A stretch of 39,983 nt of DNA from Saprospiraceae bacterium. Lineage in GTDB: Bacteria; Bacteroidota; Bacteroidia; Chitinophagales; Saprospiraceae. The position numbers and the translations under genes were made by a program. Of the stretch, positions 6,460 to 24,549 are shown piece by piece. Each line of letters opens with the position of its first letter. Positions within the stretch are counted from its first letter, which is position 1. The notes under the pieces are model-generated. The model did no database searches, was not told the origin of the DNA, and saw only the letters and a program-made list of their open reading frames with translations. The DNA is taken from positions 1 through 39,983 of the forward strand of contig JAJCYJ010000440.1 in assembly GCA_029262975.1 (NCBI GenBank), given 5' to 3'.

Positions 6460-6984
6460 TTATACCAGGTTATACTTAGAAAATAAAAATGCTTTTGTCT
6501 CTTTTTCGTCAAATGCTCCACCCAGTAATGTCTGACTGGCCAGTCCTTCCAAATAACAACTGAGGAACCTGGCTTCCTGTGCTGGTGACTTATAATTTAA
6601 TTTGGCGAAAGCCTCCGTCAACTTTTCAATCAGAGGTTTGGTCTTGTCGGGATTCATATGTTGTAATTCCCACTTCAATCTGAATTGCAAGCGCCAAAAC
6701 TCATGATGTTCTGTGGCAAGATCCAATGGAAGTTCTATTGTCTTGGCGACTACCATCATGGGATCTTTCTCCTCTATAATATTACTATAAAGTGCTTTGA
6801 ATGCTTGCTCACCTTCCTCGAAAATAGCTTTCAATAGCCCCTCTTTATTATAGAAATGTCTGAAAATTAAGCTTTCCGAGACACCAGCCTTTTGCGCAAT
6901 TTTATTGGTCGAAGTAGCAGTATATCCCTCTGTTGCAAATAACTCTAAACCAGACTTGAGAATTAGCTCTTTTTTAGTCACCAT
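6460..6984 (-). CDS. TetR/AcrR family transcriptional regulator
   Basis: N-terminal HTH (TSTNKIAQKAGVSESLIFRHFYNKEGLL). 174 aa. Divergent from the molybdo-enzyme genes. Confidence 0.9.
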   Translation of the reverse strand: MVTKKELILKSGLELFATEGYTATSTNKIAQKAGVSESLIFRHFYNKEGLLKAIFEEGEQAFKALYSNIIEEKDPMMVVAKTIELPLDLATEHHEFWRLQFRLKWELQHMNPDKTKPLIEKLTEAFAKLNYKSPAQEARFLSCYLEGLASQTLLGGAFDEKETKAFLFSKYNLV

Positions 6985-7116: not shown

Positions 7117-7593
7117 ATGGCAGAATTAAAAATTAACGGCAAGTCTATCAATGTAGATGTAGAAGGAGGCATGCCGCTATTGTGGGTCTTACGGGACGAA
7201 TTAGATATGACCGGGACAAAATATGGATGTGGCGTCTCCTCTTGTGGTGCATGTACCGTTATGATCGATGGTGTTGCCACAAAGAGTTGCACTTTTCCGG
7301 TAGCCAGTGCAGCAGGAAAGGAAATCACAACTATTGAAGGAATTGCAAAGCAGGGCCAACTTACGGCAGTGCAACGTGCCTGGATTGAACATCAAGTACC
7401 TCAATGCGGCTATTGTCAGTCAGGAATGATCATGGCAGCTGAGGCTTTGTTGGATCAGAATCCAGAACCTACAGACATGGATATAGATGAAAGCATGACA
7501 AACATCTGTCGTTGTGGCACCTATCAAAGAGTGCGACAAGCAATACATTCGGCGGCCAAATTGCGCGCCAACGAAGCAGAATTATTAGGATAA
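7117..7593 (+). CDS. (2Fe-2S)-binding small subunit of a xanthine-dehydrogenase-family molybdo-enzyme (IorA-like)
   Basis: Two [2Fe-2S] cysteine groups: [11 protein letters not shown] and CGYCQSG...CRCGTY. 158 aa. Confidence 0.9.
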
Positions 7594-7620
7594 TATTCTT
7601 TAAAAAAGTAAAAGCTGAAA

Positions 7621-9906
7621 ATGGCTGATCAAGATAAAAAATCGAAAAAAGGTAAATGGGGCCGCAGGGCATTCATGATCACAGGAGGTGTGGTTGGTGG
7701 TGGACTGGTAGTAGGTGTAGGCGGAATGCTGTGGGTGAATCACAAAATAAAACAATACACAGGAGAGGGTATGGGAGCAGGAGACTCCCTTAATGCCTGG
7801 ATCAGAATAGCTGAAGACAATACAATCACACTGGCAGTCCCGCGGTCTGAAATGGGACAGGGAGTGTACACTTCAATACCTATGCTGATAGCAGAAGAGT
7901 TGGAAGTCGATGTGCAGAAAGTAAAAATTGTACACCCGCAACCGGAGTCTCCTTATGCCAATACATTTCTATTAACAGGTCAGCCCCGGAATGTATATAA
8001 AGGCATGACCTTAATGGAAAAAATTGCTTCCGTTTTGCCAGTAGTTGGGACAGGTGGCAGTACGACCATTTCAGATGGTTATGATACTTTACGTGCTGCA
8101 GGTGCCACAGCCAGGGAAGCATTAATTATGGCCGGAGCACAAAGATGGGGAGTCGATAAAAGTGAGTGTTATGCTGAAGATGGCCATATCATAAACAAAA
8201 CATCCAAAGAAAAATTGACCTATGGGTCATTAGCCGCTGATGCCGCTCAAATTAAAGTGGACAAAATACCGACATTAAAAGCACAAAAGGATTTCAAAAT
8301 ATTGGGCAAACCGGTGCGCAGACTGGATATTCCTGAAAAAGTAGATGGTACAGCTGAATTTGGTATCGACGCAAGACCGGAAGGGCTGTTATATGCGGCT
8401 ATCAGACATCCGGAATACCTCGGAGGCACAATCGGCAGTGTGCAAAACATTGAAGAAGTTGAAGCTATGACCGGCGTAAAAAAGGTAGTAGTTCTAAAAG
8501 ATGGACAAGGTGTAGCTGTTGTTGCTGATAACAGTTGGAGAGCAAAAAATGGTGCGCTTAGTCTTGAAGTAACTGAAGAATCGAATGGCCATGAGGGTTT
8601 AAGTACAGCAGGGGTGGCGGCGAAAATGAAATCTGTGATCGCCAATAATGAAATGATAGCAACTCCGGAGTCAGAAGGGGATGTAGCATCAGTCATAGCC
8701 TCTGAAGGAAATCAATTGATTGAAGCAGAATATCTTGTACCCTATCTCGCCCAGGCCACGATGGAGCCATTGAATTGTACCGTTCATGTACATGAGGATA
8801 GAGCAGATGTGTGGGTAGGTCACCAGGCCCCGTCCGTGATCAGGGATAAAGTCGCGGCTATTACTGGTATCGACGGTGCCAATGTCACAATCAATATGAA
8901 ATACCTGGGTGGCGGATTTGGCAGAAGAGCAGAGGTGGATTTTGTAATTAAAGCAGCAGAAGTCGCGACGGTTATGAAGGGTACACCGATACAATTGTCT
9001 TATACCAGGGAAGAAGATATGAGGTATGGAATGTATCGCCCAGCAGTTATGAGCAAATTCAGGGCTGCCATTACACCTGGAGGAGATATTGCAGCCTGGG
9101 AAAACAAAATGGCCTTACAGTCAGTAGGACACAGTTCGATGATGAGGATTATGCCTTCTCAGGCCCCTGATCCAAAGGATGATCCTATGAGTTCTGAAGG
9201 TGCAGCACACTTGCCATATGCTATGGGCAGTCGCAAGGTTGCTTTTGGGGATCTTGATTTACCGATACAGGTGGGCAACTGGAGAAGCGTAGGAAGTTCT
9301 CAAAATGGTTTTTTTACAGAATCATTTATAGATGAATGCGCTGCAGCAGCAGGAAAAGATCCATATGTTTTTAGAAAAAATAAATTAGCTGATCACCCTA
9401 GGTTTGTCGCAGTACTTGATAAAGTAGCCGAAATATCTAACTGGTCTGAGCCGGCTGGTGACAATAAATTTCGTGGTATTGCGCTGCACAAGTCATTTGG
9501 AAGTATCGTAGCAGAAGTAGCAGAAATAACAAAAGTAGGAGAGAAGGAATTTTCTATAGACAATTATTATTGTGTGATAGATTGTGGACGCACTGTCAAC
9601 CCGGATACCATAGAAGCGCAAATGCAGAGCGGGATTGTATACGGATTGTCAGCTGCTATGTATGGTCAGATCACGATTGAAAATGGAAAAATTGTTGAAG
9701 GAAATTTCCCGGAATATGAAATGGTCCGTATGAATGTCACACCGCACATTACGACACATATCATGGAAATGGATGAATACCCTACGGGAGTGGGTGAACC
9801 AGGAACGCCACCTGCTGCTCCCGCTTTGACAAATGCACTATTTGCGGCGACAGGTGAACGAATCAGGGAATTACCTCTCGTAAAGCATGGATATTCTTTC
9901 GTATAA
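7621..9906 (+). CDS. Molybdopterin-binding large subunit (isoquinoline 1-oxidoreductase beta / membrane aldehyde dehydrogenase-like), TAT-exported
   Basis: Twin-arginine signal (WGRRAFMITGGVVGGGLVV). 761 aa with xanthine-dehydrogenase-family motifs (GGGFGRR, TGVGEPGTPPAAPA). The start lies 27 nt after the small subunit stop. Confidence 0.9.
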   Translation: MADQDKKSKKGKWGRRAFMITGGVVGGGLVVGVGGMLWVNHKIKQYTGEGMGAGDSLNAWIRIAEDNTITLAVPRSEMGQGVYTSIPMLIAEELEVDVQKVKIVHPQPESPYANTFLLTGQPRNVYKGMTLMEKIASVLPVVGTGGSTTISDGYDTLRAAGATAREALIMAGAQRWGVDKSECYAEDGHIINKTSKEKLTYGSLAADAAQIKVDKIPTLKAQKDFKILGKPVRRLDIPEKVDGTAEFGIDARPEGLLYAAIRHPEYLGGTIGSVQNIEEVEAMTGVKKVVVLKDGQGVAVVADNSWRAKNGALSLEVTEESNGHEGLSTAGVAAKMKSVIANNEMIATPESEGDVASVIASEGNQLIEAEYLVPYLAQATMEPLNCTVHVHEDRADVWVGHQAPSVIRDKVAAITGIDGANVTINMKYLGGGFGRRAEVDFVIKAAEVATVMKGTPIQLSYTREEDMRYGMYRPAVMSKFRAAITPGGDIAAWENKMALQSVGHSSMMRIMPSQAPDPKDDPMSSEGAAHLPYAMGSRKVAFGDLDLPIQVGNWRSVGSSQNGFFTESFIDECAAAAGKDPYVFRKNKLADHPRFVAVLDKVAEISNWSEPAGDNKFRGIALHKSFGSIVAEVAEITKVGEKEFSIDNYYCVIDCGRTVNPDTIEAQMQSGIVYGLSAAMYGQITIENGKIVEGNFPEYEMVRMNVTPHITTHIMEMDEYPTGVGEPGTPPAAPALTNALFAATGERIRELPLVKHGYSFV

Positions 9907-10787: not shown

Positions 10788-11204
10788 CTATTCTATGAAT
10801 GTGCGGATGTAATTGATCACGTGCCAAATATCTTCTTCGTAAGGTATCTTTTTTTCAAAGTTCGGCATATCATCTTTTCCAAACCGGGATTTGTAAAATA
10901 GTGCGCCATCGCTTTGAGCTTGAAATTCTTCTGTTGAGAAGTCCCCGCAAGGTGTATCTAATTGAGCGGCTTTTGAACCATCTCCAAGTCCTTCAGATCC
11001 ATGACAAGATTTGCAATGTTTGTTATAAATGGATTTCCCCATTTTCAAAGAAGCATTATCAGCTTTATGTGGGTTTTTCATTTTCTCATACTTTGCAGGT
11101 ACCACCCAGTCTGTGAATGTGAATGAGGAAGATCCACAAAGGAATAAAAACATTGCAAGTGTTAAAATTGAAAACTTTACTTTCATTTTGAAATTTTTTA
11201 TCAA
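10788..11204 (-). CDS. Monoheme class I c-type cytochrome (secreted)
   Basis: Signal peptide, single CKSCH heme motif and a distal Met candidate (DDMPNF). 138 aa. Last gene of the minus-strand redox cluster. Confidence 0.85.
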   Translation of the reverse strand: MIKNFKMKVKFSILTLAMFLFLCGSSSFTFTDWVVPAKYEKMKNPHKADNASLKMGKSIYNKHCKSCHGSEGLGDGSKAAQLDTPCGDFSTEEFQAQSDGALFYKSRFGKDDMPNFEKKIPYEEDIWHVINYIRTFIE

Positions 11205-11244
11205 GGATTAATTATTATTTTCAGAGTTTGGTATAAAAATGCTT

Positions 11245-12153
11245 TTAGAGTTGTCCAAGTCTTCTAATTTGAAATACTTCATATATTAGAAATAGTATAA
11301 ATCCCCATACAATTAGAATAAGAAGACTAATAGTTAACACAAGTGAAATAGGCGCATTCGATCCGGCTGACCACAATTCTCTTTCTAAATGTATTGTTGA
11401 AGAAGGATTTGAAACACCCCAATCGGTTGTACTCGTTCCGATAAGCGTTCCGAATTCCTCATGGTCCTCAACCTTTGCATAAATCAGTACATTACCTGAA
11501 GTATCACTCCTGATATCATTGGGGAAAATAAATGAGACGATCCCATTCTCATCAGTATATTCTGATTCTGCTATAGACATTAATCCAAACAGTCTTTTTA
11601 CATAGATGCCGACTTCAACATCAACGGCTGGGATAAGCTGACCTTCAGGACCGGGCCTTTCGACTAAGAATTGAATTGACCTAATTGAGTCTTCTTCTTG
11701 TGTTGTCAATTTTATTTTTGACCTGGTAATATCAATGATTTTTGATGCATCCAGCACGTATTTATTATCTTCTATTTTAGCTAAAAATCTATAATAATTT
11801 GATGTATCAATAGCCTTGTAAAAAGTATCAGGAAGTCCGTAATTGATGGCCCCGCTTTTATCAGTGATTGCAAACCCCAAATAATCCGAATTTTGATCAT
11901 CTTCAATGAAGAAATCTACCCTGACACCACGAACACCTACATAAGACCTATCCTCTTTGCTCTTGACAGTAGTCTTTAGGCGTGGCCCATAATTATTATA
12001 ATTAAAGTAATCTAAACTAATTCTAGCTTTTTTCTTTGCCTCGTTGCTCTGATCATTTTGACATATCAAAGCTGAAGACAATAAATAAAATGCGATTACC
12101 AGGCATGTTTTAATATGATATATTTTAATTGTCCAGGGCATCAATATGTTCAT
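11245..12153 (-). CDS. Periplasmic beta-rich protein with C-terminal TM anchor, unknown function
   Basis: N-terminal signal peptide. Two segments resemble carboxypeptidase-regulatory/transthyretin-like beta-sandwich repeats (VRVDFFIED...ITDKSGAINYGLPD; VDVEVGIYV...YTDENGIVSFIFPND). C-terminal TM (ISLVLTISLLILIVWGFILFLIY). Overlaps the NrfD-like stop by about 29 nt. Confidence 0.6.
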   Translation of the reverse strand: MNILMPWTIKIYHIKTCLVIAFYLLSSALICQNDQSNEAKKKARISLDYFNYNNYGPRLKTTVKSKEDRSYVGVRGVRVDFFIEDDQNSDYLGFAITDKSGAINYGLPDTFYKAIDTSNYYRFLAKIEDNKYVLDASKIIDITRSKIKLTTQEEDSIRSIQFLVERPGPEGQLIPAVDVEVGIYVKRLFGLMSIAESEYTDENGIVSFIFPNDIRSDTSGNVLIYAKVEDHEEFGTLIGTSTTDWGVSNPSSTIHLERELWSAGSNAPISLVLTISLLILIVWGFILFLIYEVFQIRRLGQL

Positions 12154-13516
12154 TTGTATTTAGAAAAAGTTGCTGACTATCTAATCCACGGTCTTCGGCT
12201 GTTTCCACAATAGGTATCACCGGTACGATTCTAACTAATAGAGTTATTATTAATAGTGATGCAGTCAGTGTGCCTATAGTAATCATCCATTCGGGCCCTG
12301 AAGGTGCGTAATGCAGCCAGGAGTCCGGGACACGCGTGGTAGGAATAAGCGGATAACTCAACGTAGGTACTACGATCAGGTATCTTTTAAACCAAGCCCC
12401 CACTATAATCACCATTGAGACGATAAATGCAATTAGTGGTTTTCTTCCTTTATTGAACATTAATATGATAATTGGAATGAGCATCCCACCAATCTGAACC
12501 GTCCAAAAAAGAGGAGCCATATTGCCACTGAACAAGTCGTGAAGATGTTCGCTTTCATGACCTTTCATTTTGTAAGCAGGAATAAAGTATTCATTAATAT
12601 TAAAATATAAATAGATTAAAGAAAGCATTAAAAGCAGTCTGCTCATATAATCAAAATGTTTCTCAGTAAAATGATCTTTATAATTATAGATTTTTTTAAA
12701 TATGAACATGGCACAAATCACACAAGCTGCACCCACCATAAAAGCGCCTGCTACAAAATATGGTCCTACACCAGTGCTATCCCAACCAGGCCTGAAAGTA
12801 GTTGCAAAAAGCCATGACGTTACCGTGTGTATACCAAAGGCTATCGGAATAATTATAATTGCAATGATTCTTATTGCTTTAGACAATATTTTTTTCTGTG
12901 CTTCTGTGTTTTTCCAATTTATTGAAAGGACACGGTAAAGCTTTTGTTGCCATTTTGGTATGCCCTTTAATCTATCACGCATAATTGCGAAGTCAGGGAT
13001 TAATGGTAAATACAGAAAAAGGGTGCTCAAAACCAAATATGTGCTGATCACAATCACGTCCCAGATTATGGGGGATTGAATTCGTGGATGAAAGATCAGA
13101 TTGAGCATTCTGTCAGGTCGACCCATATCGATGATGATCACTATACCCGCCATGATGATGGCGCTAACCGCTATTATCTCCGAAATTCTGGTAAGTGGAG
13201 TACGCCATTCCGCTCCTGTCAATTTTAATATGGCGCTGATCAATGAGCCAACAAGACTAATAGCAACGAAGAATACAAAGTTAGATACATAGATCCCCCA
13301 GGAAGTATAATCGCTGAGACCGGTTATTGACAGGCCTTGATCTAATTGTATCAAATAAAAATACAATCCAAGAAGGCTAAATATCAGAAGCCCAAAAATC
13401 CAGATCTTTCCTAATGTTCCAAATGGCCTTGGGTATAAATCATCTAAAAGGGATGTCACTTTTTCAGATGTGTTTATAGAATATTTGAGCTTGTCTTCTG
13501 TCTGTAAATCCGTCAT
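12125..13516 (-). CDS. NrfD/PsrC-family polytopic quinone-interacting membrane subunit (long, ActC/DsrP-sized)
   Basis: About 10 hydrophobic helices in about 463 aa. Sits directly after a TAT-exported FeS subunit. I chose the ATG at 13516, which gives TAA-C-ATG coupling with the upstream stop (13518-13520). The track ORF extends to 13561. Confidence 0.85.
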   Translation of the reverse strand: MTDLQTEDKLKYSINTSEKVTSLLDDLYPRPFGTLGKIWIFGLLIFSLLGLYFYLIQLDQGLSITGLSDYTSWGIYVSNFVFFVAISLVGSLISAILKLTGAEWRTPLTRISEIIAVSAIIMAGIVIIIDMGRPDRMLNLIFHPRIQSPIIWDVIVISTYLVLSTLFLYLPLIPDFAIMRDRLKGIPKWQQKLYRVLSINWKNTEAQKKILSKAIRIIAIIIIPIAFGIHTVTSWLFATTFRPGWDSTGVGPYFVAGAFMVGAACVICAMFIFKKIYNYKDHFTEKHFDYMSRLLLMLSLIYLYFNINEYFIPAYKMKGHESEHLHDLFSGNMAPLFWTVQIGGMLIPIIILMFNKGRKPLIAFIVSMVIIVGAWFKRYLIVVPTLSYPLIPTTRVPDSWLHYAPSGPEWMITIGTLTASLLIITLLVRIVPVIPIVETAEDRGLDSQQLFLNTNEHIDALDN

Positions 13517-13517
13517 G

Positions 13518-14435
13518 TTACTTGTTTCGAGAATACTCATCATCTTCAAATGGGAAGGCACGCTGCACCGGAGGCAAGTAATATACTCGCGGCTTGGTTC
13601 CTAAGTCTTCCATATACCGATAGCCAAATCTTTCTTTTAATAAATCACTGAGTTTTACTGTCTCTGTTCCATTTGAAACGGCGTCTTCATTTTCATCCCC
13701 AAAATAGAATACACCATTAGGACAGGCGGAAACACAATGCGGCATTTCTCCTTTTCGAACCATGTCAGGGCAGAAGTCACATTTGGAAACAGTTCCTTTT
13801 TTAGGCGGACAGCTGGTCTCAGGATCATATGGCATATTAAGAACCTCCAATGGCAGTACTGGTTCACTCCAGTCAAAACTTCGCGCGGAATATGGACAAG
13901 CTACCATGCAGAATCTGCATCCTATGCATCTGTCATTATCGATTAAGACGATACCGTCTGTTCTTTTAAAAGTTGCATCGACAGGACAAACTTTTACACA
14001 AGGAGGATTATCACAATGAAAACATGTGGTGGGTTGCCAATAGGGTGAAGCCAAATCATTGTCTTGTTGCTTTACAATCTTAAGCCAATCTTTTTCAGGA
14101 GTTAAATGATGCATTTTTTCACAAGCGTCATGACACTTTCTCAGATTTTTACATTGTGCCAGATCGATAACCATTACGAATTTTCTGCCTGGTATCCCTT
14201 CCCTTACTTTGGCCGTATATGTATTTGGGATAGGTTTTAAATAGGCTTCATCAATTTCTATAATCTCTCCATCGGGAGACAATAATTTGACTTTGTTCCC
14301 ACTTTCTAGTACATCATCCCGGTGAAAAATATTATCATTTTCAGTGGGAGAGGGAAAAGCCAATCCTGCAAAAAAACTCTTTTTCAAAAAGGACCTTCGG
14401 TTATTCTCGAGGGAGGCTTCGTTATTATTTGACAT
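13518..14435 (-). CDS. TAT-exported 4Fe-4S ferredoxin-type subunit (NrfC/DmsB-like) with an N-terminal extension
   Basis: Twin-arginine signal NRRSFLKKSFFAGLAF. Cysteine groups: CKNLRKCHDAC (atypical spacing), CFHCDNPPCVKVCP, CIGCRFCMVACP and CDFC...CVSACP. Confidence 0.9.
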   Translation of the reverse strand: MSNNNEASLENNRRSFLKKSFFAGLAFPSPTENDNIFHRDDVLESGNKVKLLSPDGEIIEIDEAYLKPIPNTYTAKVREGIPGRKFVMVIDLAQCKNLRKCHDACEKMHHLTPEKDWLKIVKQQDNDLASPYWQPTTCFHCDNPPCVKVCPVDATFKRTDGIVLIDNDRCIGCRFCMVACPYSARSFDWSEPVLPLEVLNMPYDPETSCPPKKGTVSKCDFCPDMVRKGEMPHCVSACPNGVFYFGDENEDAVSNGTETVKLSDLLKERFGYRYMEDLGTKPRVYYLPPVQRAFPFEDDEYSRNK

Positions 14436-14446
14436 CTTCAGTTGAT

Positions 14447-14713
14447 CTAAGATTTATTATTCTTTTTCTTTTCTTCTTCTATCCATTCTTTGAGCCTCGA
14501 ATTAGAAACTTTTCCGCTGCACATTTTATCGATGTATTTATTATCAATATCATATAGTGTCCCATCAGCTGAAATTAAACGGGTTGTCTTCTTGTTTTCG
14601 GGATCTTTTTTCACAGATCTATTCATAATCTCTATACCAGCGATGATACCTATGCCTCCGATAATTCCTTTATCCAAAAACTTTCGCCTGGTATTTTTTT
14701 GTTCTTTATTCAT
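14447..14713 (-). CDS. Small TAT-signal protein, paralog of the N-terminal extension of the adjacent FeS subunit
   Basis: ATG at 14713 gives MNKEQKNTRRKFLDKGIIGGIGIIAG (twin-arginine signal). The RLISADGTLYDIDNKYIDKM segment mirrors KLLSPDGEIIEIDEAYLKPI in the next gene. The track ORF starts at 14764 and would overlap the upstream gene. Confidence 0.6.
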   Translation of the reverse strand: MNKEQKNTRRKFLDKGIIGGIGIIAGIEIMNRSVKKDPENKKTTRLISADGTLYDIDNKYIDKMCSGKVSNSRLKEWIEEEKKKNNKS

Positions 14714-14729
14714 TATAGTTTGATTATAA

Positions 14730-15638
14730 TTAATAAACCCACATACGGGTGATATTAAAACCAATTAGAAAATTTTCGGTAAAGTTGTCCGTCCAGTTTC
14801 TTGAATTATAAAAATTATTCTCCTGTGGTAATATGCTGTTGCTGTTGCCTATGAACACTTGAAAGGCATGAGAACTGGTACCTATCTGTATGCCAAGACT
14901 AATGTTAGGGTTAGGATTATTTCTGACATGTTTAGTGATAGGCTGATCAACATTTATAATAAAATCAAGACTTTCAGTAAGCCCTACTTGGGCACCAAAC
15001 GCAAGTGCTATGTGGTCATTTTCCCTTGTTTCGCCGATAATATTATAATGTGAGAGACTGGGGGCTACTTGAAACGAAAACCAATCATTAAATTTTCTGC
15101 CTATAATGATTTGATGAAAGTAGGAATATCTGTCTGATGTGTTATAAATGACTTCTCGGTTTTCGGCAGGTCTTGAATCCAGAACAGCGTTTCCAAAGTA
15201 AGTAACTGACAAGGGTATGCTTCCACTTCGTGTCTGCTTTAAAACTGAATACTTAGCATTAACATCAAGCATATGTTTGAACTTGGTAAGTCCAAGACCC
15301 AGGGAGAGATTATCAATCGGTGTATAACTTAATCCCATTCTGATATTAGAATTGGAATAGAATCCATATAAGTCATCATATCCCTTGTTCAAGGTGCCAA
15401 ATCTGTGCATGATATCGAATTCAAACGTTCCTTTTACAGGTACATGGACTGTCTGGTTATCAATGAGCCATACGCTTTCAAAAACAGAGGTAACCGGTCG
15501 ATCTGGAGCAGGAGCGGATTCATCTTGAGACAAGACTGGTTGTATACCTGCGAGAAGAAATATTAAGAAGAGTAGAATATTGAATTCCTGCCAATTAGAT
15601 TTAACCCAAGTCATAATTATTGCTTTAGAATCTGACAT
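14730..15638 (-). CDS. Predicted outer-membrane beta-barrel protein (DUF5777-like)
   Basis: Signal peptide, alternating-hydrophobicity strands, aromatic C-terminus (NITRMWVY). The FEFDIMHRFG motif is one I associate with the DUF5777 barrel family. Confidence 0.65.
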   Translation of the reverse strand: MSDSKAIIMTWVKSNWQEFNILLFLIFLLAGIQPVLSQDESAPAPDRPVTSVFESVWLIDNQTVHVPVKGTFEFDIMHRFGTLNKGYDDLYGFYSNSNIRMGLSYTPIDNLSLGLGLTKFKHMLDVNAKYSVLKQTRSGSIPLSVTYFGNAVLDSRPAENREVIYNTSDRYSYFHQIIIGRKFNDWFSFQVAPSLSHYNIIGETRENDHIALAFGAQVGLTESLDFIINVDQPITKHVRNNPNPNISLGIQIGTSSHAFQVFIGNSNSILPQENNFYNSRNWTDNFTENFLIGFNITRMWVY

Positions 15639-15697
15639 TGTTTTTTCATTTTATAATTAGAAAGTCATTTTATTTTACATAATTCCGAATGTCCTAT

Positions 15698-16087
15698 TTA
15701 ATTATTAGGAGCTCCATTTTGTATCCAGGCTAAAATTAATTGCCGGTCTAATTCAGGTATTTGTGGTCCACCTGGAGGCATCGGATCCCCTCCTGGTAAA
15801 AATTCTACAGCTTTGTAAACACTACTATTTTGAGGTTGTGTAGTGTTCACAAATCCACTTTTTAACTCTGACCAGGCTCTCTCACCGAGCAGGTTTGGAG
15901 CCGTCGTTCCATCATGACAATTCGAAGTGCTACAGCTTTTTGCCATGATAGGAAGAATATGTGTGGAGAATGAAACGTCTTCAGGGTTTATAGGTTGTAA
16001 TGGAGGTGGGCTGTCGTAGTAGCAAGATTGAAAAATGGAAACTAATACTACACAGAGATAAACCATTATAATTTTCCAGTTATTCAT
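15698..16087 (-). CDS. Small lipoprotein with a PSCyt1-like (planctomycete cytochrome c-like) domain carrying CX4CH
   Basis: Lipobox IFQSC. CSTSNCH at codons 52-58 (nt 15914-15934). The rest, ...SSVYKAVEFLPGGDPMPPGG...LILAWIQNGAP, resembles the PSCyt1 pattern CxxCH...MP...WI..GA. Confidence 0.6.
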   Translation of the reverse strand: MNNWKIIMVYLCVVLVSIFQSCYYDSPPPLQPINPEDVSFSTHILPIMAKSCSTSNCHDGTTAPNLLGERAWSELKSGFVNTTQPQNSSVYKAVEFLPGGDPMPPGGPQIPELDRQLILAWIQNGAPNN

Positions 16088-16131
16088 AATTGGATATTGT
16101 TATTGTTTCTTAATGAATGTCCAGCCTGTAT

Positions 16132-16815
16132 TTATATTGATTTTTTAAATTGTCCACTGGCAATCACCTTTACATTATCAGCTATGTTTCCTGACTGAAT
16201 TCCAAATACTGTCTTTGCGGCGAATTCAAATTCAAGAATAAATCCTGCAACATTTAAAGGCGCATTTCTAACCCCGGAAGCTTCATCAAAGAATGTAGTT
16301 CCGACATAATTAAGTTTGCCTAATATAGGTGCTTCGACATTGTGGAAAGACATTACTCCTTCTACATCAAATCCTCCCCGATTGTCATGCGATATCTTTG
16401 TGCTTTGGAAGCTTGCCTCATCACTTGCAGCATCACCATCGACAATTCCAAATGTACCTAACAGGCATCCGGCGTCTCTGCCTGGTTCTCCAGTGTTAAC
16501 AGTCGACAATGTTACTTTGCCTGTTATTAGACTATTAGTGGGTGTCTTCTGATCAAAATCTATAGACATTTCGAAATCATTAAAACGTCCGGTAAGCAAT
16601 GCCGAAGAACCCAGGTAGGCTGTTTCCCACCTTACACTTGAATGTGTTTTATCAAAAGCATACCCGTCAGATACTTCGACAATATCATCTCCATATTCAA
16701 ATGTTGATTCTGAAATCTGACTTAAGGGGTCGTCATCATGTGTGCAAGATGATATTTCTGATAACATAAAAAGAATAGATGCACACATGCAGAAAACCAT
16801 GAATGAATTTTTCAT
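16132..16815 (-). CDS. YceI-like domain lipoprotein
   Basis: Lipobox (EISSC). HSSVRWETAYLG...LTGRFNDFEMSIDFD...KVTLSTVNTGEPGRD matches the YceI pattern (S.v.F...G.F..f...i.fd...Sv.Tg...RD). Confidence 0.8.
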   Translation of the reverse strand: MKNSFMVFCMCASILFMLSEISSCTHDDDPLSQISESTFEYGDDIVEVSDGYAFDKTHSSVRWETAYLGSSALLTGRFNDFEMSIDFDQKTPTNSLITGKVTLSTVNTGEPGRDAGCLLGTFGIVDGDAASDEASFQSTKISHDNRGGFDVEGVMSFHNVEAPILGKLNYVGTTFFDEASGVRNAPLNVAGFILEFEFAAKTVFGIQSGNIADNVKVIASGQFKKSI

Positions 16816-17540
16816 AACTTTTTGAATTATTTTATAATTTGATAATCATTTATTTCCACTCGGAAAATAAGTACAGAACTACTTGATTAGCATGACCAAT
16901 GTCATAAATTATTGTGATTTTAGTCACTTTGGTATGTCCTTAAATCACTTAATTTGATGTGGGACAGAAGCGTATGAAAAATTTGAGTTATTCAGGATGG
17001 ATAGCGGACCTTATATTGAAATTTCTATTCCTGGAAGTGCTTAATAGGATCAATGAAAAGCGTGATTTAATTGGCTCTTAGCCTTTTTAAGTGGGTTCTA
17101 ATGACTTAATGCTATTATAAAAATTTACTTATCTCTATCAAAATATGAGAACAGGTATAGTATATGCAGAATCAAAAGAAGCGTTAGGAAATCGAAATAG
17201 AGGGTGCGGGTGCTAGCTTTGCGGGCTGGTATTATTTCGAGAGCATTTTTTTGGTTCTTTTTTTTTTGCGTATGAAAAAAAATGAACGAATGTCAAGTGT
17301 TAAATTTAATTTTTTTATATACACTGCAAAGGGCGTAGAACCATTTAATTCACTATTGCTAAAATTATAAATTGCAGTAATTAGAAAACGACCCGAATGA
17401 TACAACTTGTGTTATAAGATATGATTGTCAGTGGAGAGTAAATCTAAAAGGTCCTTTATGGCATTAAAACTTTCTGAGGATAGAGTGAGGTCAGTTATCG
17501 GTTTTGGGGGAGAGAAATTTTAGAGCACGGATTATGGTGA

Positions 17541-17570
17541 TAAAAAAAGGTGACCATATAGTCACCTTTC
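17541..17570 (-). terminator. Rho-independent terminator of the 17601-18350 gene
   Basis: AAAGGTGAC (17546-17554) pairs with GTCACCTTT (17561-17569) across a 6-nt loop. The A7 run at 17542-17548 is a U-tract on the minus strand. Lies 31 nt past the TAA at 17601-17603. Confidence 0.65.
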
Positions 17571-17600
17571 GATAATTTCATAGCAATATTTTAAGATATT

Positions 17601-18723: not shown

Positions 18724-20277
18724 TCAGTCTTTGTGCTTAATTATCCTTTCGGCAGCCAAAAATCCAGGTGCACAGGTGATCCCCCCGCCCGGATGAGCTC
18801 CACTTCCAGAAAGGTAGAGTCCCTTAATAGGAGTGTCATACCTGGCACAATAGGGGATAGGCCGGGTGATTAACTGATCTACGGCATGTTCACCATGAAA
18901 AATGTGGCCATTTGTAAGATTAAATTGATCTTCAAAGTCTACAGGTGAAAGTACTTCACATCCGACAATCTCATCTCTGGAATTCTCTATATAATCCAGA
19001 AGCATATCTTCTACATTATCTTTTAATCTATCCTTTTGTTCTTTATTCCATCCAGCGTCAAAATGATAAGGCGCAAAATGAACAAGTATGGACAGTACGC
19101 TATGACCATCAGGGGCCACCGTAGGATCTGAGACAGATGGTACATGAATATCTAAGATGGGGTGATCAGAAAATTTCCGATATTTAACAGAGTCAAAGGC
19201 CTTTTCCATTTCATCGATAGAATTTCCTGTTCGCGCATATTCTATAGTATCATCAGATTTAAATTTAAACTTCACTTTATTACTAAGGGCGATATTAACC
19301 TTTGCGGTAGTCCCCCGGGACCTATAATTCTGTATACTTCTTTCTAATGGATAATCGATTACATTGGGAGCCAACAAATCCAGGAATGTGTGCTGAGGTG
19401 TGCAAGAAGATGCCACGATTGGTGAATTTTCTACAGCACCGTCTTTTAGTGTTATCCCGGTTACCATTCCATGTTTATCAACATTTATGCTACTTACCTC
19501 TGACTGCAGTTTTATAACCACACCGGCTGATATAGCTGCTTTTTCGAGTGCGTTCACGAGGGCTTGAGGTCCTCCTACTATGTGCTCTCTGGCACATACT
19601 TCCCACATCAATAAATTCAACGTAGTATATGAAGACCATGGTCCGGTATATGAAGCATAAATTGAAGGTCCCAAGAGTCCGGCTTTAAGGAATTCGGTTT
19701 CGAATCTTTCGTTGAGAAAATCAGCTACGGACATAGGCCCTACTTTGAGCAATTCTGTCATCGTTTTTTTCCCTAACTTTTTCAAAGCAAGGCCTTTCTT
19801 ACCAAGGGCAAAAAGCTCTTTTGTGCCAAATTGAATGAGATCCGGTGGAATCTCGTTTAATAGCGGGAATAAAAATTTACCTATTTCATCTATAAAAATC
19901 CGATAGTCGCGATATGCTTCTCCATCATCTTTTGATATTTTAGTTATTTCTTCAATGGCCTTATTTCTATCAGATGGAAGAAATATTCCCCGGCCATCTT
20001 TGGCCAATATAGCCGCATCCGGACGTGCATTTTTAATTTTTAACCCAAACTGTTCCAAACCTAATTGCTTTAATACAGAGGTCCTGACACCACTTGTGTC
20101 ATGGACTAGTCCGGTAGTTCTGTATCCAGGAATAAATTCATGACCTGAGGCGATACCTCCCAGGAATTTATTCTTTTCGAGCAAAAGAACTTTCATTCCT
20201 TTTTTAGCGAGAATCGTGGCAGTAGTCAGACCATTATGTCCACCACCGATAACAATGATATCATAACTCTTATTCAT
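18724..20277 (-). CDS. FAD-dependent oxidoreductase, phytoene-desaturase (CrtI)/PYROXD2 superfamily, divergent paralog
   Basis: N-terminal dinucleotide fold YDIIVIGGGHNGLTTATILAKKGMKVLLLEKNKFLGG. C-terminal GLYLSGSGAHPGGGI motif. 5 nt downstream of its paralog. Confidence 0.9.
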   Translation of the reverse strand: MNKSYDIIVIGGGHNGLTTATILAKKGMKVLLLEKNKFLGGIASGHEFIPGYRTTGLVHDTSGVRTSVLKQLGLEQFGLKIKNARPDAAILAKDGRGIFLPSDRNKAIEEITKISKDDGEAYRDYRIFIDEIGKFLFPLLNEIPPDLIQFGTKELFALGKKGLALKKLGKKTMTELLKVGPMSVADFLNERFETEFLKAGLLGPSIYASYTGPWSSYTTLNLLMWEVCAREHIVGGPQALVNALEKAAISAGVVIKLQSEVSSINVDKHGMVTGITLKDGAVENSPIVASSCTPQHTFLDLLAPNVIDYPLERSIQNYRSRGTTAKVNIALSNKVKFKFKSDDTIEYARTGNSIDEMEKAFDSVKYRKFSDHPILDIHVPSVSDPTVAPDGHSVLSILVHFAPYHFDAGWNKEQKDRLKDNVEDMLLDYIENSRDEIVGCEVLSPVDFEDQFNLTNGHIFHGEHAVDQLITRPIPYCARYDTPIKGLYLSGSGAHPGGGITCAPGFLAAERIIKHKD

Positions 20278-20282
20278 AATGA

Positions 20283-21872
20283 TTATATAGATCTAGATTG
20301 TAAAATTGTCTTGGCACATAGTTCTCCACTTGCGCCCATAATACCTCCGCCCGGATGCGTACCGGATCCACACATATACAGGCTTGGTACCGAAGTCTTG
20401 TACTTCGCATATCCTGAAATCGGTCGCTGAAAGAGCAACTGCTCAAGACTTAACTCTCCCTGGAAAATATTGCCTTCCGTCAGACCCATTTGTTTTTCGA
20501 TATCCCATGGTGTAAGCACCTGACGATAAAGGATCATATCTTTTAATCCCGGGATATATTCAGCCATAGTATCCACTACAGCATCACCAAACGCCTCCCT
20601 GTATTTGGGCCAATTTTCAGCTCCTTCTTTAATGTTATAGGGAGCATATTGTACAAAACATGAAAGTATATGCTTCCCTGGAGGAGCTACTGTTGGGTCT
20701 GTGAGCGATGGAATTACCGCATTGATATACGGTCGTTTGCTGAATGATCCATATTTGGCTTCATCAAATGCCTTTTCCAGGTAATCAATACTAGGTGCAA
20801 TGGCAATATCACCCCGAAGATGATCGCCTACCCCCGGCCGACATGAAAATTCCGGGACCCTGTCCAGCGCCAGGTTCACCTTTCCTGAACTTCCCCGAAA
20901 TTTGAATCTTTTTACTTGTTTTACTATTTCATCATCCAAATTCTTTTCACCGACCAGATTCAAATACGTCTGGTTTGGATCAAGATTTGAAATGATAGTT
21001 TTAGCGGTATATTCATCACCGTTCTCAAGGACTACACCATAAGCCTGGCCATTTTTAATCAAAACTTTATGTACAGGGGCATTCGTTTTAATTTCTGCTC
21101 CATATGATCTTGCTGCATTGGCGCAGGCCATACTGATACCACCAGTTCCACCTTTTGAGAAACCCCATGATCTGAAAGCACCGTCCAACTGACCCATATA
21201 GTGATGGAGCAGGACATAAGCAGTTCCAGGAGAACGAACGCCCTGGAAAGTCCCAATGATTCCACTTACTGACATGGGCGCCTTCAAGACTTCAGATTCA
21301 AACCATTGATCGAGAAAATCAAGGGCACTCATCGTGACGAGTTTAATATTCATGTGAAGCAGGTCAGGACCTAAGTCCTTAAATGCTTTACCCAACCGGA
21401 GAAGATTAGCTAATTCTTTGATTTTCAAGGAGTTAATATCTGGCGCAGGGTGATCAATAACCTCTTTGGCCAATTTGCCCATATGTGTCATGATTCTACT
21501 GAATTCCGGGTATACCTCAGCATCTTTTTGGCTAAAACGGGATATTTCTCTGCGTGACTTATGAGCATCTCCCCATCGTGCCAATGAATCACCATTAGGC
21601 AATGGTGAAAGTGAGCAATCCATAGGGATTACTTCATATCCATGTTTTGCAAGTTCGAGTTCCCTGATGATGTGAGGGCGAAATAAACTGACGACATATG
21701 AAGCGACAGAAAATGTAAATCCCGGATATAATTCTTCAGATACGGCGGCACCACCCAGTACATATCTTTTTTCCAGTACCAGCACTTTCTTGCCTGCTTT
21801 TGCCAAATATGCGGCGCAAATCAGCCCGTTATGGCCACCACCTACTACTATTGCATCATAATTTCCTTTCAT
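20283..21872 (-). CDS. FAD-dependent oxidoreductase, PYROXD2-like
   Basis: YDAIVVGGGHNGLICAAYLAKAGKKVLVLEKRYVLGGAAVSEELYPGFTFSVASY, LDQWFESEVLKAP, YVLLHHYMG and LYMCGSGTHPGGGIMG align closely with human PYROXD2 as I recall it. Confidence 0.9.
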   Translation of the reverse strand: MKGNYDAIVVGGGHNGLICAAYLAKAGKKVLVLEKRYVLGGAAVSEELYPGFTFSVASYVVSLFRPHIIRELELAKHGYEVIPMDCSLSPLPNGDSLARWGDAHKSRREISRFSQKDAEVYPEFSRIMTHMGKLAKEVIDHPAPDINSLKIKELANLLRLGKAFKDLGPDLLHMNIKLVTMSALDFLDQWFESEVLKAPMSVSGIIGTFQGVRSPGTAYVLLHHYMGQLDGAFRSWGFSKGGTGGISMACANAARSYGAEIKTNAPVHKVLIKNGQAYGVVLENGDEYTAKTIISNLDPNQTYLNLVGEKNLDDEIVKQVKRFKFRGSSGKVNLALDRVPEFSCRPGVGDHLRGDIAIAPSIDYLEKAFDEAKYGSFSKRPYINAVIPSLTDPTVAPPGKHILSCFVQYAPYNIKEGAENWPKYREAFGDAVVDTMAEYIPGLKDMILYRQVLTPWDIEKQMGLTEGNIFQGELSLEQLLFQRPISGYAKYKTSVPSLYMCGSGTHPGGGIMGASGELCAKTILQSRSI

Positions 21873-23092
21873 TGTTTTTTGTTTTCGACTGAAGGAGTGG
21901 ATTTTTTACGTTCTGGATTAAAGAATTGAGGACTGGTTAATCTGGCCGACACGGTATGACGGATATGCTCGACAGTACATTCTATCTGTACAGTTGCACC
22001 GGGTTTGTCAAACTTTTTTTCGATTGTAGCAAGCGCAATATTTTTCTTTAATATGGGAGACCATGTGCCACTTGTGGCATATCCGATTTGTGTCTTTTTG
22101 CTTTTGTCTTTGTAGATAGGGATTGAATCTCGCCATGCCATACTTCCTACTTCGGGAGGGAGACCATATGAATTGTATAGCTTTTCGATTTCAGTCCAAT
22201 CAATATCGAGACCGACAATAGTCCATGAAGAACCACTTTCCTTTTCTTTTTTTAGTGCCTTCTGTCCATTGAAAGGTGCTCGTTCCAAATTAACAGTCCA
22301 CCCGAGCGAAATCTCATAGGGCGAGGATTTTCTATCATCGATCAATGCATGCAGTGCATTATAGTAATCAACGTCTTTTAATATTAATCCGGCTTCCACA
22401 CGTGTGACATCGAGGGCATCCAAACCAGCTGGCCGGATATTATAACGACCGCCTTCAGCCATGAGTAGATCGTAGAGCTTTATAGCATTGGCATTGTCTA
22501 CCCACAATTCATAACCCAGATCACCTGTATATCCTGTCCGTGAAATGTTGATTTCAAAACCTGCAACCCTTGCTCTAGTGGTGCCAAAGAATTTCAGCCT
22601 ATCCATGTCAGCTGAAGTGATTTGTTTGATGATATCCCGTGATGTTGGCCCTTGTAAAGCTAGTCCTGCTATCTGAGTCGAAATATCTTCTAGTTGAACA
22701 TCATAACCTCGTTTGAACCTGCTAAACCATGAAAAGCATGGGTCTGCTGATGTGACAAAGAATTCCTCATCTCCCCGCCGCATGACAGTACCGTCATCTA
22801 CGACTTTGCCATCTGCAGTACACCAACAACAATAAGTCACTCGTCCTACCTTCAGCTTGTTTATATTTTTGACCATTATTCGGGATAGGAAAGAAGCAGC
22901 ATCTTTTCCTTTGACTGAATACTTATATAATGGAGTAATATCAAGCAATCCAGCAGAATTTCTAAAAGCGAAGTACTCCATATCATGATGTACAAGATAG
23001 GAGCTGACGGCATAGTAGCCGGCCCATTCCTTGTAGTTCATGCTTTCGCAGAGTTGACTTGTGCGGGGATGAAAAGGTGATTTAACAGGCAT
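21869..23092 (-). CDS. GcvT-family aminomethyltransferase (folate-binding) protein
   Basis: About 407 aa from the ATG at 23092 (MPVKSPFHPRTSQL...), with a GcvT-like fold pattern (GLLDITPLYKY, ALQGPTSRDI, TGYTGDLGYELW, FNGQKAL). Its stop overlaps the next start by 4 nt (ATGA). The track ORF starts at 23149. Confidence 0.85.
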   Translation of the reverse strand: MPVKSPFHPRTSQLCESMNYKEWAGYYAVSSYLVHHDMEYFAFRNSAGLLDITPLYKYSVKGKDAASFLSRIMVKNINKLKVGRVTYCCWCTADGKVVDDGTVMRRGDEEFFVTSADPCFSWFSRFKRGYDVQLEDISTQIAGLALQGPTSRDIIKQITSADMDRLKFFGTTRARVAGFEINISRTGYTGDLGYELWVDNANAIKLYDLLMAEGGRYNIRPAGLDALDVTRVEAGLILKDVDYYNALHALIDDRKSSPYEISLGWTVNLERAPFNGQKALKKEKESGSSWTIVGLDIDWTEIEKLYNSYGLPPEVGSMAWRDSIPIYKDKSKKTQIGYATSGTWSPILKKNIALATIEKKFDKPGATVQIECTVEHIRHTVSARLTSPQFFNPERKKSTPSVENKKQ

Positions 23093-23328
23093 TTTTATCG
23101 ATGAATTGTGAGTTGGTAAAGTTTGAAGTAGAAGATCTGATCTCGACAAATGAGAAGGCTTGAGGTAAGCAAGCTTATGGGGCCATTTAGAGCCCGGGAA
23201 TAAAGGTATAAGGAGGGAATTTTAAGATCATGGACAATTATAAGGATAAATAGTCGATTGATGGCCAGTGGCGTTTATATTTTATTGTGCGCCAATTCGT
23301 GTGCTAATGAACATTCTCATAACTCATA

Positions 23329-23940: not shown

Positions 23941-24549
23941 TTACGCCGCATGGCGCTCCAGGATAATTTTACATCTTGTTGGCGATGTAACCTTGACAGA
24001 ATGGCTGATATGCAAGGGTATTTCTAAAAAGTCTCCTGTCTGAAGGGCATGTACTTTACTGCCTATGGTAATCTCGCAAGAACCTTCTACAATTAGAAAT
24101 TTTTCTATTTCATCCGTGTGAACTTCAGGGGGGGCGCCTTCTTTCAGCCATATAATCATTGTAGTTTTCTCTTCATTTGAACCAATAATTCTGCCACACA
24201 TTGAATCGTACTCATCGGGCTCTTGTAGATCAGTTCTGTCTAGCCATACACTGAATTCTGATAATTTAGAATTACTACTCAGGGTAGGAGGGATAACTGG
24301 AATTTCGCCATTTTGGATTCTGTCGGTATAATTTATTCCAGCTAACAGCATCGGTTTGGCGGTAGGATCAACTTCTGAAGCATTGGCAAAAGCATATGAC
24401 TCCAGGGCCATTTCTATTTCTGTTATTTCCTCAAGGATTTCAGGATAATTGGCTGCAGCCTCTTCCACCTCTAATCTCTCCTTTTCGGAAAGATCTCCAA
24501 TAACATAGAGTTCTAATATGCCGGAATTCTTTATCTCCATTAAATCCAT
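23941..24549 (-). CDS. Soluble anti-sigma factor with C-terminal ChrR-like cupin domain
   Basis: The N-terminal helical region resembles anti-sigma domains (ELYVIGDLSEKERLEVEEAAANYPE) but has no His/Cys zinc ligands. C-terminal cupin (FLIVEGSCEITIGSKVHALQTGDFLEIPLHISH). No TM segment. An alternative ATG at 24540 forms TAATG with the sigma stop. Confidence 0.75.
   Translation of the reverse strand: MDLMEIKNSGILELYVIGDLSEKERLEVEEAAANYPEILEEITEIEMALESYAFANASEVDPTAKPMLLAGINYTDRIQNGEIPVIPPTLSSNSKLSEFSVWLDRTDLQEPDEYDSMCGRIIGSNEEKTTMIIWLKEGAPPEVHTDEIEKFLIVEGSCEITIGSKVHALQTGDFLEIPLHISHSVKVTSPTRCKIILERHAA

Follow-up and report, generated by a model that had tools for sequence, protein, structure and literature searches.

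A stretch of 39,983 nucleotides from a Saprospiraceae bacterium (GenBank assembly GCA_029262975.1, contig JAJCYJ010000440.1, positions 1 to 39,983; hereafter the window) contains eight consecutive open reading frames (ORFs) on the minus strand at 10788-16815, which we number g1 to g8 in transcription order. The eight genes constitute two separable modules: a core, g4-g8, built around an iron-sulfur (FeS) protein (g5) and an NrfD-type membrane protein (g6), and an outer-membrane triad, g1-g3, composed of a YceI-like lipoprotein, a small lipoprotein, and a DUF5777 protein. Both modules are conserved across Bacteroidota, and the FeS and NrfD pair has no catalytic subunit beside it. We tentatively posit, with confidence somewhat short of even, that the core is a minimal menaquinol:cytochrome c oxidoreductase resembling alternative complex III (ACIII) and that it is wired to an outer-membrane redox module.

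Homologs of the g6 NrfD protein number in the thousands, the closest of which (60-74% identity) are from Saprospiraceae, Haliscomenobacteraceae, and Ulvibacter, and when each species was represented by one genome, a scan matched at least 595 of them. Bacteroidota account for the best 80 loci, apart from two metagenome-assembled genome records labeled with other taxa or none. Loci span Saprospiraceae, Chitinophagaceae, Cytophagales, Sphingobacteriales, and Flavobacteriales, and among the cultured carriers are Chryseolinea serpens DSM 24574, Niastella vici DJ57, Solitalea agri MAHUQ-68, and Emticicia sp. Given that the arrangement recurs in more than 80 loci of different Bacteroidota species, it is not the product of chance; a neighborhood search seeded with DUF5777 homologs retrieves the same gene set. 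The eight window proteins were searched with jackhmmer against all ORFs of 85 loci (individual loci are cited below by L numbers), and the presence of a component was scored only in loci with enough contig room for it. The FeS protein adjoins NrfD in 75 of 75 loci, g7 follows NrfD in 74 of 74, a monoheme cytochrome c is found in the core of 58 of 61, either after g7 or before g4, and the small g4 protein, which carries a twin-arginine translocation (Tat) motif, is found in 55 of 71. The pair formed by g2 and DUF5777 lies beside the core in 39 of 44 loci, and YceI is present in 20 of the 38 loci that have at least 7 kb of flank. The co-conservation of the eight genes on which the original prediction depended is strong across Bacteroidota, but it is that of two modules rather than one, with YceI as a variable member. 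The order of the modules is swapped in L004, and in L086 they are divergently transcribed.

The NrfD subunit of the core is closest to ActC of ACIII. The g6 protein matches the NrfD family (PF03916, 5e-34), and its sole solved relatives at E<1e-3 are the ActC chains 8k9e_C, 6lod_C, 6btm_C, and 6f0k_C, with which it aligns over its full length (E 8e-52 to 6e-48, ~30% identity); its ten hydrophobic segments match the ten transmembrane (TM) segments of ActC. Functional residues of R. marinus ActC (PMC5928083) were mapped by hand onto this alignment and onto the invariant positions of the family. The quinol-pocket residues W82, F89, and D169 of ActC are kept as the family invariants W73, F80, and D153, the cytoplasmic half-channel is mostly kept (R114, R119, E122, S103, Y176, S180, D191, R196, D197, and H247), and Y270, E326, and the "gate" Arg395 (R378) are kept as well. 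The g6 protein is the presumed quinone site.

The FeS protein g5 matches Fer4_11 of Pfam (1e-21), and its relatives in the Protein Data Bank (PDB) are PsrB (2vpw_B, 9e-28), ArrB (6cz7_B), and the C-terminal domain of ActB, to which it aligns only in the FeS part (6f0k_B 858-1024, 6btm_B 768-946). The best NCBIfam matches are DsrO for g5 (182 bits, cutoff 200) and DsrP for g6 (147 bits, cutoff 350). A set of 85 g5 homologs has 15 invariant cysteines in four groups together with an invariant His109. Since the first of these groups, CX5CX3C, is one cysteine short, g5 is expected to hold three [4Fe-4S] clusters and one [3Fe-4S] cluster, the composition that has been reported for ActB and QrcC (PMC5928083, PMC8076601). 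In one 571-aa protein (P0091), NrfD is fused to the final 94 residues of the FeS protein; this may be a read-through or gene-calling artifact.

No catalytic partner accompanies this pair. The region 10788-16815 contains no gene for a molybdenum-bis-pyranopterin guanine dinucleotide (Mo-bisPGD) or NrfA-type catalytic subunit, as the original prediction had proposed, and clustering of the 584 unassigned neighboring ORFs of 82 loci yielded no molybdopterin family. In the same 82 loci no multiheme gene recurs beside the FeS/NrfD pair; multiheme cytochromes are found in 4 loci only (e.g., L010), where they appear to lie in the outer-membrane part and not by FeS/NrfD. Neither pentaheme ActA nor ActF, the second NrfD-like subunit of ACIII, is encoded in the window cluster or recurrent in the more than 80 loci, and DsrM-, DsrK-, and DsrJ-like genes are absent from the window cluster and from the recurrent neighbors. 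We therefore reject a local loss of the catalytic subunit, given that no molybdopterin family recurs among the neighbors of 82 loci.

The L029 locus separates the core from ACIII itself, which the original prediction had named as a possible alternative identity. Here most of an ACIII operon (L029:1-13600; ActB of 1005 aa, ActC of 464 aa, a monoheme cytochrome c of 200 aa, and ActF of 385 aa, but no ActA identified) lies 1.9 kb upstream of an FeS-NrfD-g7-cytochrome c set. The NrfD protein of this set is 56% identical to the window g6 protein, 30% identical to ActC of its own genome, and 23% identical to its ActF. These side-by-side operons, along with the length of g5 (305 aa, against ~1000 aa for ActB), lead us to reject orthology of the FeS and NrfD proteins to ActB and ActC; g6 is closest to ActC in sequence and is a distinct paralog of it. 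In L029 a second cytochrome c of 251 aa with a long low-complexity N-terminal region comes next.

The same observations bear on the idea that a complex iron-sulfur molybdoenzyme (CISM) or ACIII operon has decayed here or is incomplete, its partner having been lost locally or being encoded elsewhere, an explanation we consider highly improbable. The NrfD and FeS proteins do come from the same superfamilies as subunits of Psr, Nrf, Dms, and ACIII, and an unrelated IorAB-like molybdenum hydroxylase pair is encoded 1-3 kb away. However, no molybdopterin gene is recurrent in the more than 80 loci, the genes are intact and strongly conserved (15 invariant cysteines in g5 and many invariant NrfD residues), L029 holds both ACIII and this gene set with NrfD proteins only 30% identical, and g7 and g4 are family-specific subunits absent from known complexes. 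The IorAB-like pair, the short-chain dehydrogenase/reductase (SDR) gene downstream, and a 249-aa gene upstream of the cluster are not conserved neighbors in related loci, and we reject all three as partners of the cluster.

The accessory subunits of the core give it an identity of its own. Three independent fusions of NrfD to g7 exist (L022, 10061-12286, 741 aa; P0092, 739 aa; P0103, 736 aa). From them we conclude that g7 belongs physically to the complex, with a first helix that truly crosses the membrane from the cytoplasmic side. An AlphaFold2 model of g7 (predicted local distance difference test score, pLDDT, 82.8) has a helix at residues 7-31, two beta-sandwiches, and a C-terminal TM helix at residues 269-301. 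The C-terminal anchor and the beta-sandwich fold that were originally predicted for this protein are thus upheld, but its supposed signal peptide is probably a true TM anchor that is not cleaved, which would give an ActD-like topology of two TM segments with both termini inside. Foldseek returned only generic tandem Ig-like folds for g7 (beta-glucuronidase, complement C5, intimin) and no functional lead, and no Pfam model matches g7 or g4. A g7 profile gathers 816 representatives at E<=1e-10 among 1.84 billion clusters at 50% identity, and as all of these are ~300 aa long we regard g7 as a defined family still lacking a Pfam model.

The g4 protein has the motif RRKFLD followed by one hydrophobic segment (residues 12-30), and g5 has the motif RRSFLK, in agreement with the Tat signals first assigned to both. 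The two proteins are paralogous in their N-terminal parts: g4 is 32% identical to residues 10-66 of g5 over 57 aa (E 1e-6), corresponding to an N-terminal extension of approximately 66 residues in g5, and in both the Tat motif is followed by a hairpin-like motif, K-L-L-S-x-D-G-x-x-x-x-I-D. From its sequence, g4 is probably a Tat-inserted signal-anchor protein; that a protein predicted to lack a cofactor keeps a Tat signal is a puzzle. The g8 protein matches Cytochrome_CBB3 (2.9e-10) and Cytochrom_C (2.5e-8) and has a single CKSCH motif; its PDB matches are cytochrome c552 (9vr0/7o9u, ~3e-16) and, more weakly, ActE of ACIII (6f0k_E, 9e-6; 6btm_E, 5.5e-4). Tandem FeS-NrfD-g7 sets occur in L016, L019, L025, L021, L031, L036, L010, and L042, with three sets in L025, and in L016, L019, and L025 the tandem sets are bracketed by one small Tat gene (g4) and one cytochrome c gene. 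These tandem sets recall the ActC/ActF duplication of ACIII and hint at hetero-oligomeric complexes.

The outer-membrane triad is composed of a barrel, a probable cytochrome, and a lipoprotein. The g3 protein is a member of DUF5777 (PF19089, 4e-74, 249 bits against a 23.1-bit cutoff), and its AlphaFold2 model is a 12-stranded barrel (pLDDT 84.6) with Foldseek matches to OmpG, FapF, NanC, Tsx, the COG4313 channel, and FadL. Conservation is higher at the presumed lumen-facing positions than at the lipid-facing ones, with facing inferred from strand alternation only, and it is also high in residues 53-70, an N-terminal segment. Invariant polar residues are unusually many in this family (His78, His209, His257, and several Gln, Asn, and Arg residues), and His175, His197, and His237 are nearly invariant. 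The barrel itself possibly binds a cofactor or metal.

The g2 protein alone falls under every Pfam cutoff, its best match being Cytochrome_CBB3 (6.6e-4). Among 41 homologs, C22 of the lipobox, C52, C57, and H58 are invariant, and 63 of 70 family members have the motif CX4CH and not CXXCH. The family profile matches the second heme domain of FoxE (5mab_A, 6.4e-7), with which it has a WIKQGAK motif in common, and the C-terminal domain of hydrazine synthase alpha (5c2v_A, 1e-5), to whose CXXCH the CX4CH motif aligns with a 2-residue gap. Based on these two profile matches, g2 is a probable monoheme c-type cytochrome of the FoxE/PSCyt1 type with an expanded heme motif. The earlier PSCyt1-like call stands at the level of the family, through its links to PSCyt1 (matched by 3 of 41 members only), FoxE, and cytochrome c, but not for the single protein, which is sub-threshold.

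The g1 protein matches YceI (PF04264) over profile positions 1-148 of 150 (7e-14, 52.9 bits against a 23.7-bit cutoff), and the solved structures nearest to it are those of PA0423 (7bwl, 3e-9) and E. coli YceI (1y0g, 2.6e-7). YceI is one occupant of a variable slot in the triad. A lipoprotein of ~430 aa from the EB_dh family (PF09459) is a recurrent neighbor in 14 of 38 loci and mostly sits directly before the g2-DUF5777 pair, the position of YceI in the window, and in L017 the same slot holds an EB_dh-cytochrome c fusion; a multiheme cytochrome possibly fills it in the 4 loci mentioned above. EB_dh is the family of the heme b subunit of ethylbenzene dehydrogenase, and an EB_dh representative had no match among PDB sequences. 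YceI, EB_dh, and the EB_dh-cytochrome c fusion are all of families tied to redox cofactors or quinone binding; YceI-like X158 domains bind ubiquinone-8 and are found with cytochrome domains in the extracellular proteins Cbp2D and Cbp2E (PMC8981238). In g1 the lipobox cysteine is followed by T-H-D-D-D (family pattern C-T-[HRK]-[DE]-[DN]), and the EB_dh lipoproteins too carry C-T-[K/H/R]-[D/E]-[D/N] at this position, whereas g2 and g8 do not. This motif resembles the experimentally defined surface-export signal of Bacteroidota lipoproteins, C-X-K-(D/E)2 (PMC5080379), and g1 is predicted to be surface exposed. Two more small families accompany the triad in 12-13 loci of the Chitinophagaceae type (e.g., L062:7463-7993 and L068:4346-4873). 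One is a ~171-aa lipoprotein after DUF5777 and the other a ~175-aa hydrophobic, probably multi-TM protein before YceI; neither has a Pfam match, and the latter is similar only in size and position to yceJ (cytochrome b561), the partner of yceI in E. coli.

We hypothesize that the core would be located in the inner membrane with its working parts on the periplasmic face, as a stripped-down relative of ACIII. Menaquinol would be oxidized at g6, and electrons would run through the FeS wire of g5 to the monoheme cytochrome c g8; periplasmic cytochrome c would pass them to the outer-membrane cytochrome g2, and they would then reach a cofactor held at the cell surface by the slot lipoprotein, which in the case of YceI has a quinone/polyisoprenoid-binding fold. 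The core is possibly still proton-translocating. This scheme supposes that the predicted cofactors would be loaded, that the core subunits would be in contact, and that electrons would pass between the modules, outward, to a terminal substrate. Given that the core keeps the quinol-handling and monoheme-directed parts of ACIII, a minimal menaquinol:cytochrome c oxidoreductase is the simplest reading of it. Electron transfer from menaquinol (approximately -74 mV) to a class-I cytochrome c is thermodynamically downhill, for which reason we favor the outward direction. Three features suggest that electrons pass between the core and the outer membrane: a barrel, a probable cytochrome lipoprotein, and a lipoprotein with a surface signal are persistently linked to the core; YceI can be exchanged for EB_dh-family or c-type cytochrome proteins; and the linkage survives rearrangements of order and strand (L004, L086). 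It is possible, although on the doubtful side, that the two modules together form a trans-envelope conduit found throughout the phylum Bacteroidota, in which an ACIII-derived menaquinol dehydrogenase and a new outer-membrane redox unit would carry electrons to or from surface substrates. The outer-membrane unit would then comprise the DUF5777 barrel, the CX4CH FoxE-like cytochrome, and an interchangeable surface lipoprotein with quinone (YceI) or heme b (EB_dh).

Several points weigh against an oxidoreductase wired to the outer membrane. The quinol site has two changes, H139 of ActC being an invariant Asp (D130) and D253 an invariant Leu (L236) in the g6 family. With 12 strands, the barrel is too narrow to surround a cytochrome as the 26-stranded MtrB surrounds MtrA, which leaves the electron step across the outer membrane unexplained, and the face of the outer membrane on which g2 resides is uncertain because a single acidic residue follows its lipobox cysteine. 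Three loci with ample flank (L005, L027, and L072) have no triad within 7 kb of the core, demonstrating that the core can stand alone. The synteny could reflect co-regulation of functionally separate systems.

In an alternative that we judge rather unlikely, the core would be a stand-alone second menaquinol:cytochrome c oxidoreductase, a "mini-ACIII" feeding aerobic terminal oxidases, and the triad a separate system, merely co-located or co-regulated, that for example moves or keeps a hydrophobic compound (isoprenoid, quinone, or pigment) at the outer membrane. Cores without a triad, the separate transcription units of L086, and the position of the L029 core 1.9 kb from ACIII all fit this explanation, as do the hydrophobic-substrate channels FadL and COG4313 among the structural neighbors of DUF5777 and the binding of polyisoprenoids by YceI proteins (PMC8981238). 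The adjacency of the modules in 39 of 44 loci nevertheless persists through rearrangements, and the triad has the probable cytochrome g2 and can have, in its slot, EB_dh-family or c-type cytochrome proteins, which lipid transport alone hardly accounts for.

The electrons may instead flow inward, with the outer-membrane module using its FoxE-like cytochrome to oxidize a donor outside the cell (Fe(II) or reduced humics, for example) and passing the electrons to cytochrome c, and with the FeS/NrfD complex acting as a cytochrome c:menaquinone reductase in the manner of Qrc or of ACIII run backward, or, in a variant, with cytochrome c feeding a terminal oxidase directly; we regard this direction as improbable. 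The homology of the g2 family to FoxE, a diheme cytochrome that oxidizes Fe(II), and the parallel between an outer-membrane cytochrome, barrel, and periplasmic cytochrome c and the Cyc2-Cyc1 schemes (PMC10654088) are in its favor, and NrfD complexes run both ways, Qrc being a cytochrome c3:menaquinone reductase (PMC8076601). However, a class-I cytochrome c could reduce menaquinone only by an uphill reaction at the expense of proton-motive force, and g2 shares with FoxE no more than the fold and motifs of one heme domain. The carriers are mostly aerobic heterotrophs and are not known as iron oxidizers, which we count against inward flow.

The layout of the cluster is given in Table 1. The original prediction of eight packed minus-strand genes agrees with the coordinates of the ORFs, and its spacing of 50 nt or less applies to most junctions and is exceeded, immaterially, at two of them: in transcription order the spacings are 44, 59, 16, 11, and 1 nt, a 29-nt overlap (g6/g7), and 58 nt, the last of which becomes 40 nt if g8 starts at its TTG codon. 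The FeS-NrfD junction reads TAA-C-ATG. Hidden Markov model searches recovered the YceI, DUF5777, Fer4, NrfD, and cytochrome c families that had been proposed, and an NrfD protein of about 463 aa with about 10 TM segments is borne out by the hydrophobic segments and full-length ActC alignment described above.

Table 1. Genes of the eight-gene cluster, in transcription order, with their positions in the window.
Gene	Coordinates	Strand	Assignment
g1	16132..16815	-	YceI-like lipoprotein, 227 aa
g2	15698..16087	-	Small lipoprotein, 129 aa, CX4CH motif
g3	14730..15638	-	DUF5777 outer-membrane protein, 302 aa
g4	14447..14713	-	Tat-motif protein, 88 aa
g5	13518..14435	-	Tat-exported four-cluster ferredoxin, 305 aa, NrfC/PsrB/ActB-C-terminal type
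g6	12125..13516	-	ActC-like NrfD membrane subunit, 463 aa, 10 TM
g7	11245..12153	-	Two-TM subunit, two periplasmic Ig-like beta-sandwich domains, 302 aa
g8	10788..11186	-	Monoheme class-I cytochrome c, 132 aa (ATG) or 138 aa (TTG at 11204)

Upstream of g1 is a 785-nt non-coding A/T-rich spacer with long A and T runs (window 16816-17600), in which no Rfam match was found and promoter and terminator scans gave nothing above background; a hairpin with a T-run at ~17541-17570 (minus strand), spotted by eye and missed by the consensus scan, marks the end of the preceding gene (249 aa). On its downstream side the cluster converges on the SDR gene. The IorAB-like pair (7117-9906, plus strand) also converges on the cluster; its small subunit is a [2Fe-2S] protein (Fer2_2) and its large subunit a 761-aa MoCoBD protein of the xanthine-oxidase family, whose N-terminus carries the twin-arginine motif GRRAFMITGG; no cytochrome subunit gene lies beside the pair, and a TetR gene (6460-6984, minus strand) is next to it. 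Farther upstream (18724-23149, minus strand), a GCV_T aminomethyltransferase-like gene shows translational coupling to two adjoining genes, whose products (517 and 529 aa) are flavin adenine dinucleotide-dependent proteins similar to amine oxidases and phytoene desaturases. Two genes for extracytoplasmic function sigma factors follow at 24540-25121 and 25775-26335, the first overlapped by a cupin-domain gene (23941-24549).

The original prediction stated that no functional description of this arrangement was known, and we found none in the literature searched: DUF5777 and the combination of YceI with NrfD are absent from it, and searches on NrfC/D with extracellular electron transfer in Bacteroidetes yielded genome papers on other matters only. 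A 2021 survey of NrfD complexes distinguishes 15 types, each with a catalytic or multiheme partner, and includes no such arrangement (PMC8076601). In many respiratory enzymes, NrfD subunits are seen as the modules that handle quinone and translocate ions, and the g4-g8 family would add a type of NrfD complex with neither partner. As it is reduced to an FeS protein, an NrfD protein, and one heme, this family would be a natural minimal system for studying how quinol oxidation is coupled to proton movement. The family is also widespread and is tied to an undescribed outer-membrane set of DUF5777, a probable CX4CH cytochrome, and YceI/EB_dh lipoproteins. Should the modules make up a conduit, abundant Bacteroidota of soil, freshwater, and activated sludge would join the bacteria capable of extracellular electron transfer, and YceI proteins would gain a concrete redox role.

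Compared with the known systems it recalls, the cluster differs from ACIII, CISM, DsrMKJOP, Qrc, and porin-cytochrome complexes each in at least one tested defining feature, and it is a member of none of them. The likeness to ACIII (6f0k, 6btm, 6lod, 8k9e) is the most extensive: a 10-TM ActC-type NrfD, a periplasmic four-cluster FeS domain one cysteine short and thus fitting a [3Fe-4S] cluster, an ActE-like monoheme cytochrome c (g8), a two-TM subunit with both ends in the cytoplasm as in ActD (g7), and a presumed quinol:cytochrome c activity on the periplasmic side. In contrast to ACIII, the cluster has no pentaheme ActA, no molybdopterin-like ActB1 domain (g5 having 305 aa against ~1000 aa of ActB), and only one NrfD, ActF being absent; g7, which shows no similarity to ActD in sequence, bears two periplasmic Ig-like domains, the small Tat-signal protein g4 is additional, Asp and Leu take the places of His139 and Asp253 at the quinol site, and in L029 the cluster coexists with a separate ACIII in one genome.

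The DsrJOP part of DsrMKJOP likewise combines a periplasm-facing c-type cytochrome, a Tat-exported FeS protein, and a 10-TM NrfD-like protein with no molybdopterin subunit, and DsrO and DsrP are the best NCBIfam matches (182 and 147 bits). Both scores are under the NCBIfam cutoffs (200 and 350 bits), however, DsrM, DsrK, and DsrC are missing, and the cytochrome is monoheme, unlike the triheme DsrJ. We take the carriers of the cluster to be mostly described as aerobic Bacteroidota and not as sulfur metabolizers. With Qrc and the CISM enzymes (Psr, Nrf, Dms, Ttr, Arr) the cluster shares the combination of an NrfC/PsrB-type FeS subunit and an NrfD-type quinone subunit; g5 has the four cysteine groups of a four-cluster ferredoxin subunit, with one [3Fe-4S] cluster expected as in QrcC. 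It lacks their Mo-bisPGD or molybdopterin-like subunit and the multiheme QrcA or NrfA/NrfB, and PsrC, DmsC, and NrfD are farther from g6 than ActC is, with none of them matched in the PDB at E<1e-3.

The whole arrangement is reminiscent of MtrCAB, PioAB/MtoAB, and the fused cytochrome-porin Cyc2, in which an outer-membrane barrel and c-type cytochrome are linked to an inner-membrane quinone enzyme, and the predicted surface lipoprotein of the cluster has a counterpart in MtrC. The barrel of the cluster has 12 strands against ~16-17 in Cyc2 and 26 in MtrB, its probable cytochrome is a monoheme CX4CH protein, and the surface partner is YceI or EB_dh and not a decaheme protein; family and Foldseek searches detected no sequence homology to Mtr, Pio, or Cyc2. 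A YceI fold is also combined with c-type cytochrome domains, again located outside the cytoplasmic membrane, in the redox proteins Cbp2D and Cbp2E of Cellvibrio and Saccharophagus, and their X158 domain, which binds ubiquinone-8, has been proposed to act in redox reactions (PMC8981238). Those are secreted multidomain proteins of Gammaproteobacteria with carbohydrate-binding modules, whereas the cluster encodes separate lipoproteins, a dedicated barrel, and an inner-membrane quinone module, and no carbohydrate-binding module. The cluster perhaps works in part like ACIII and, in its logic, like MtrCAB or Cyc2.

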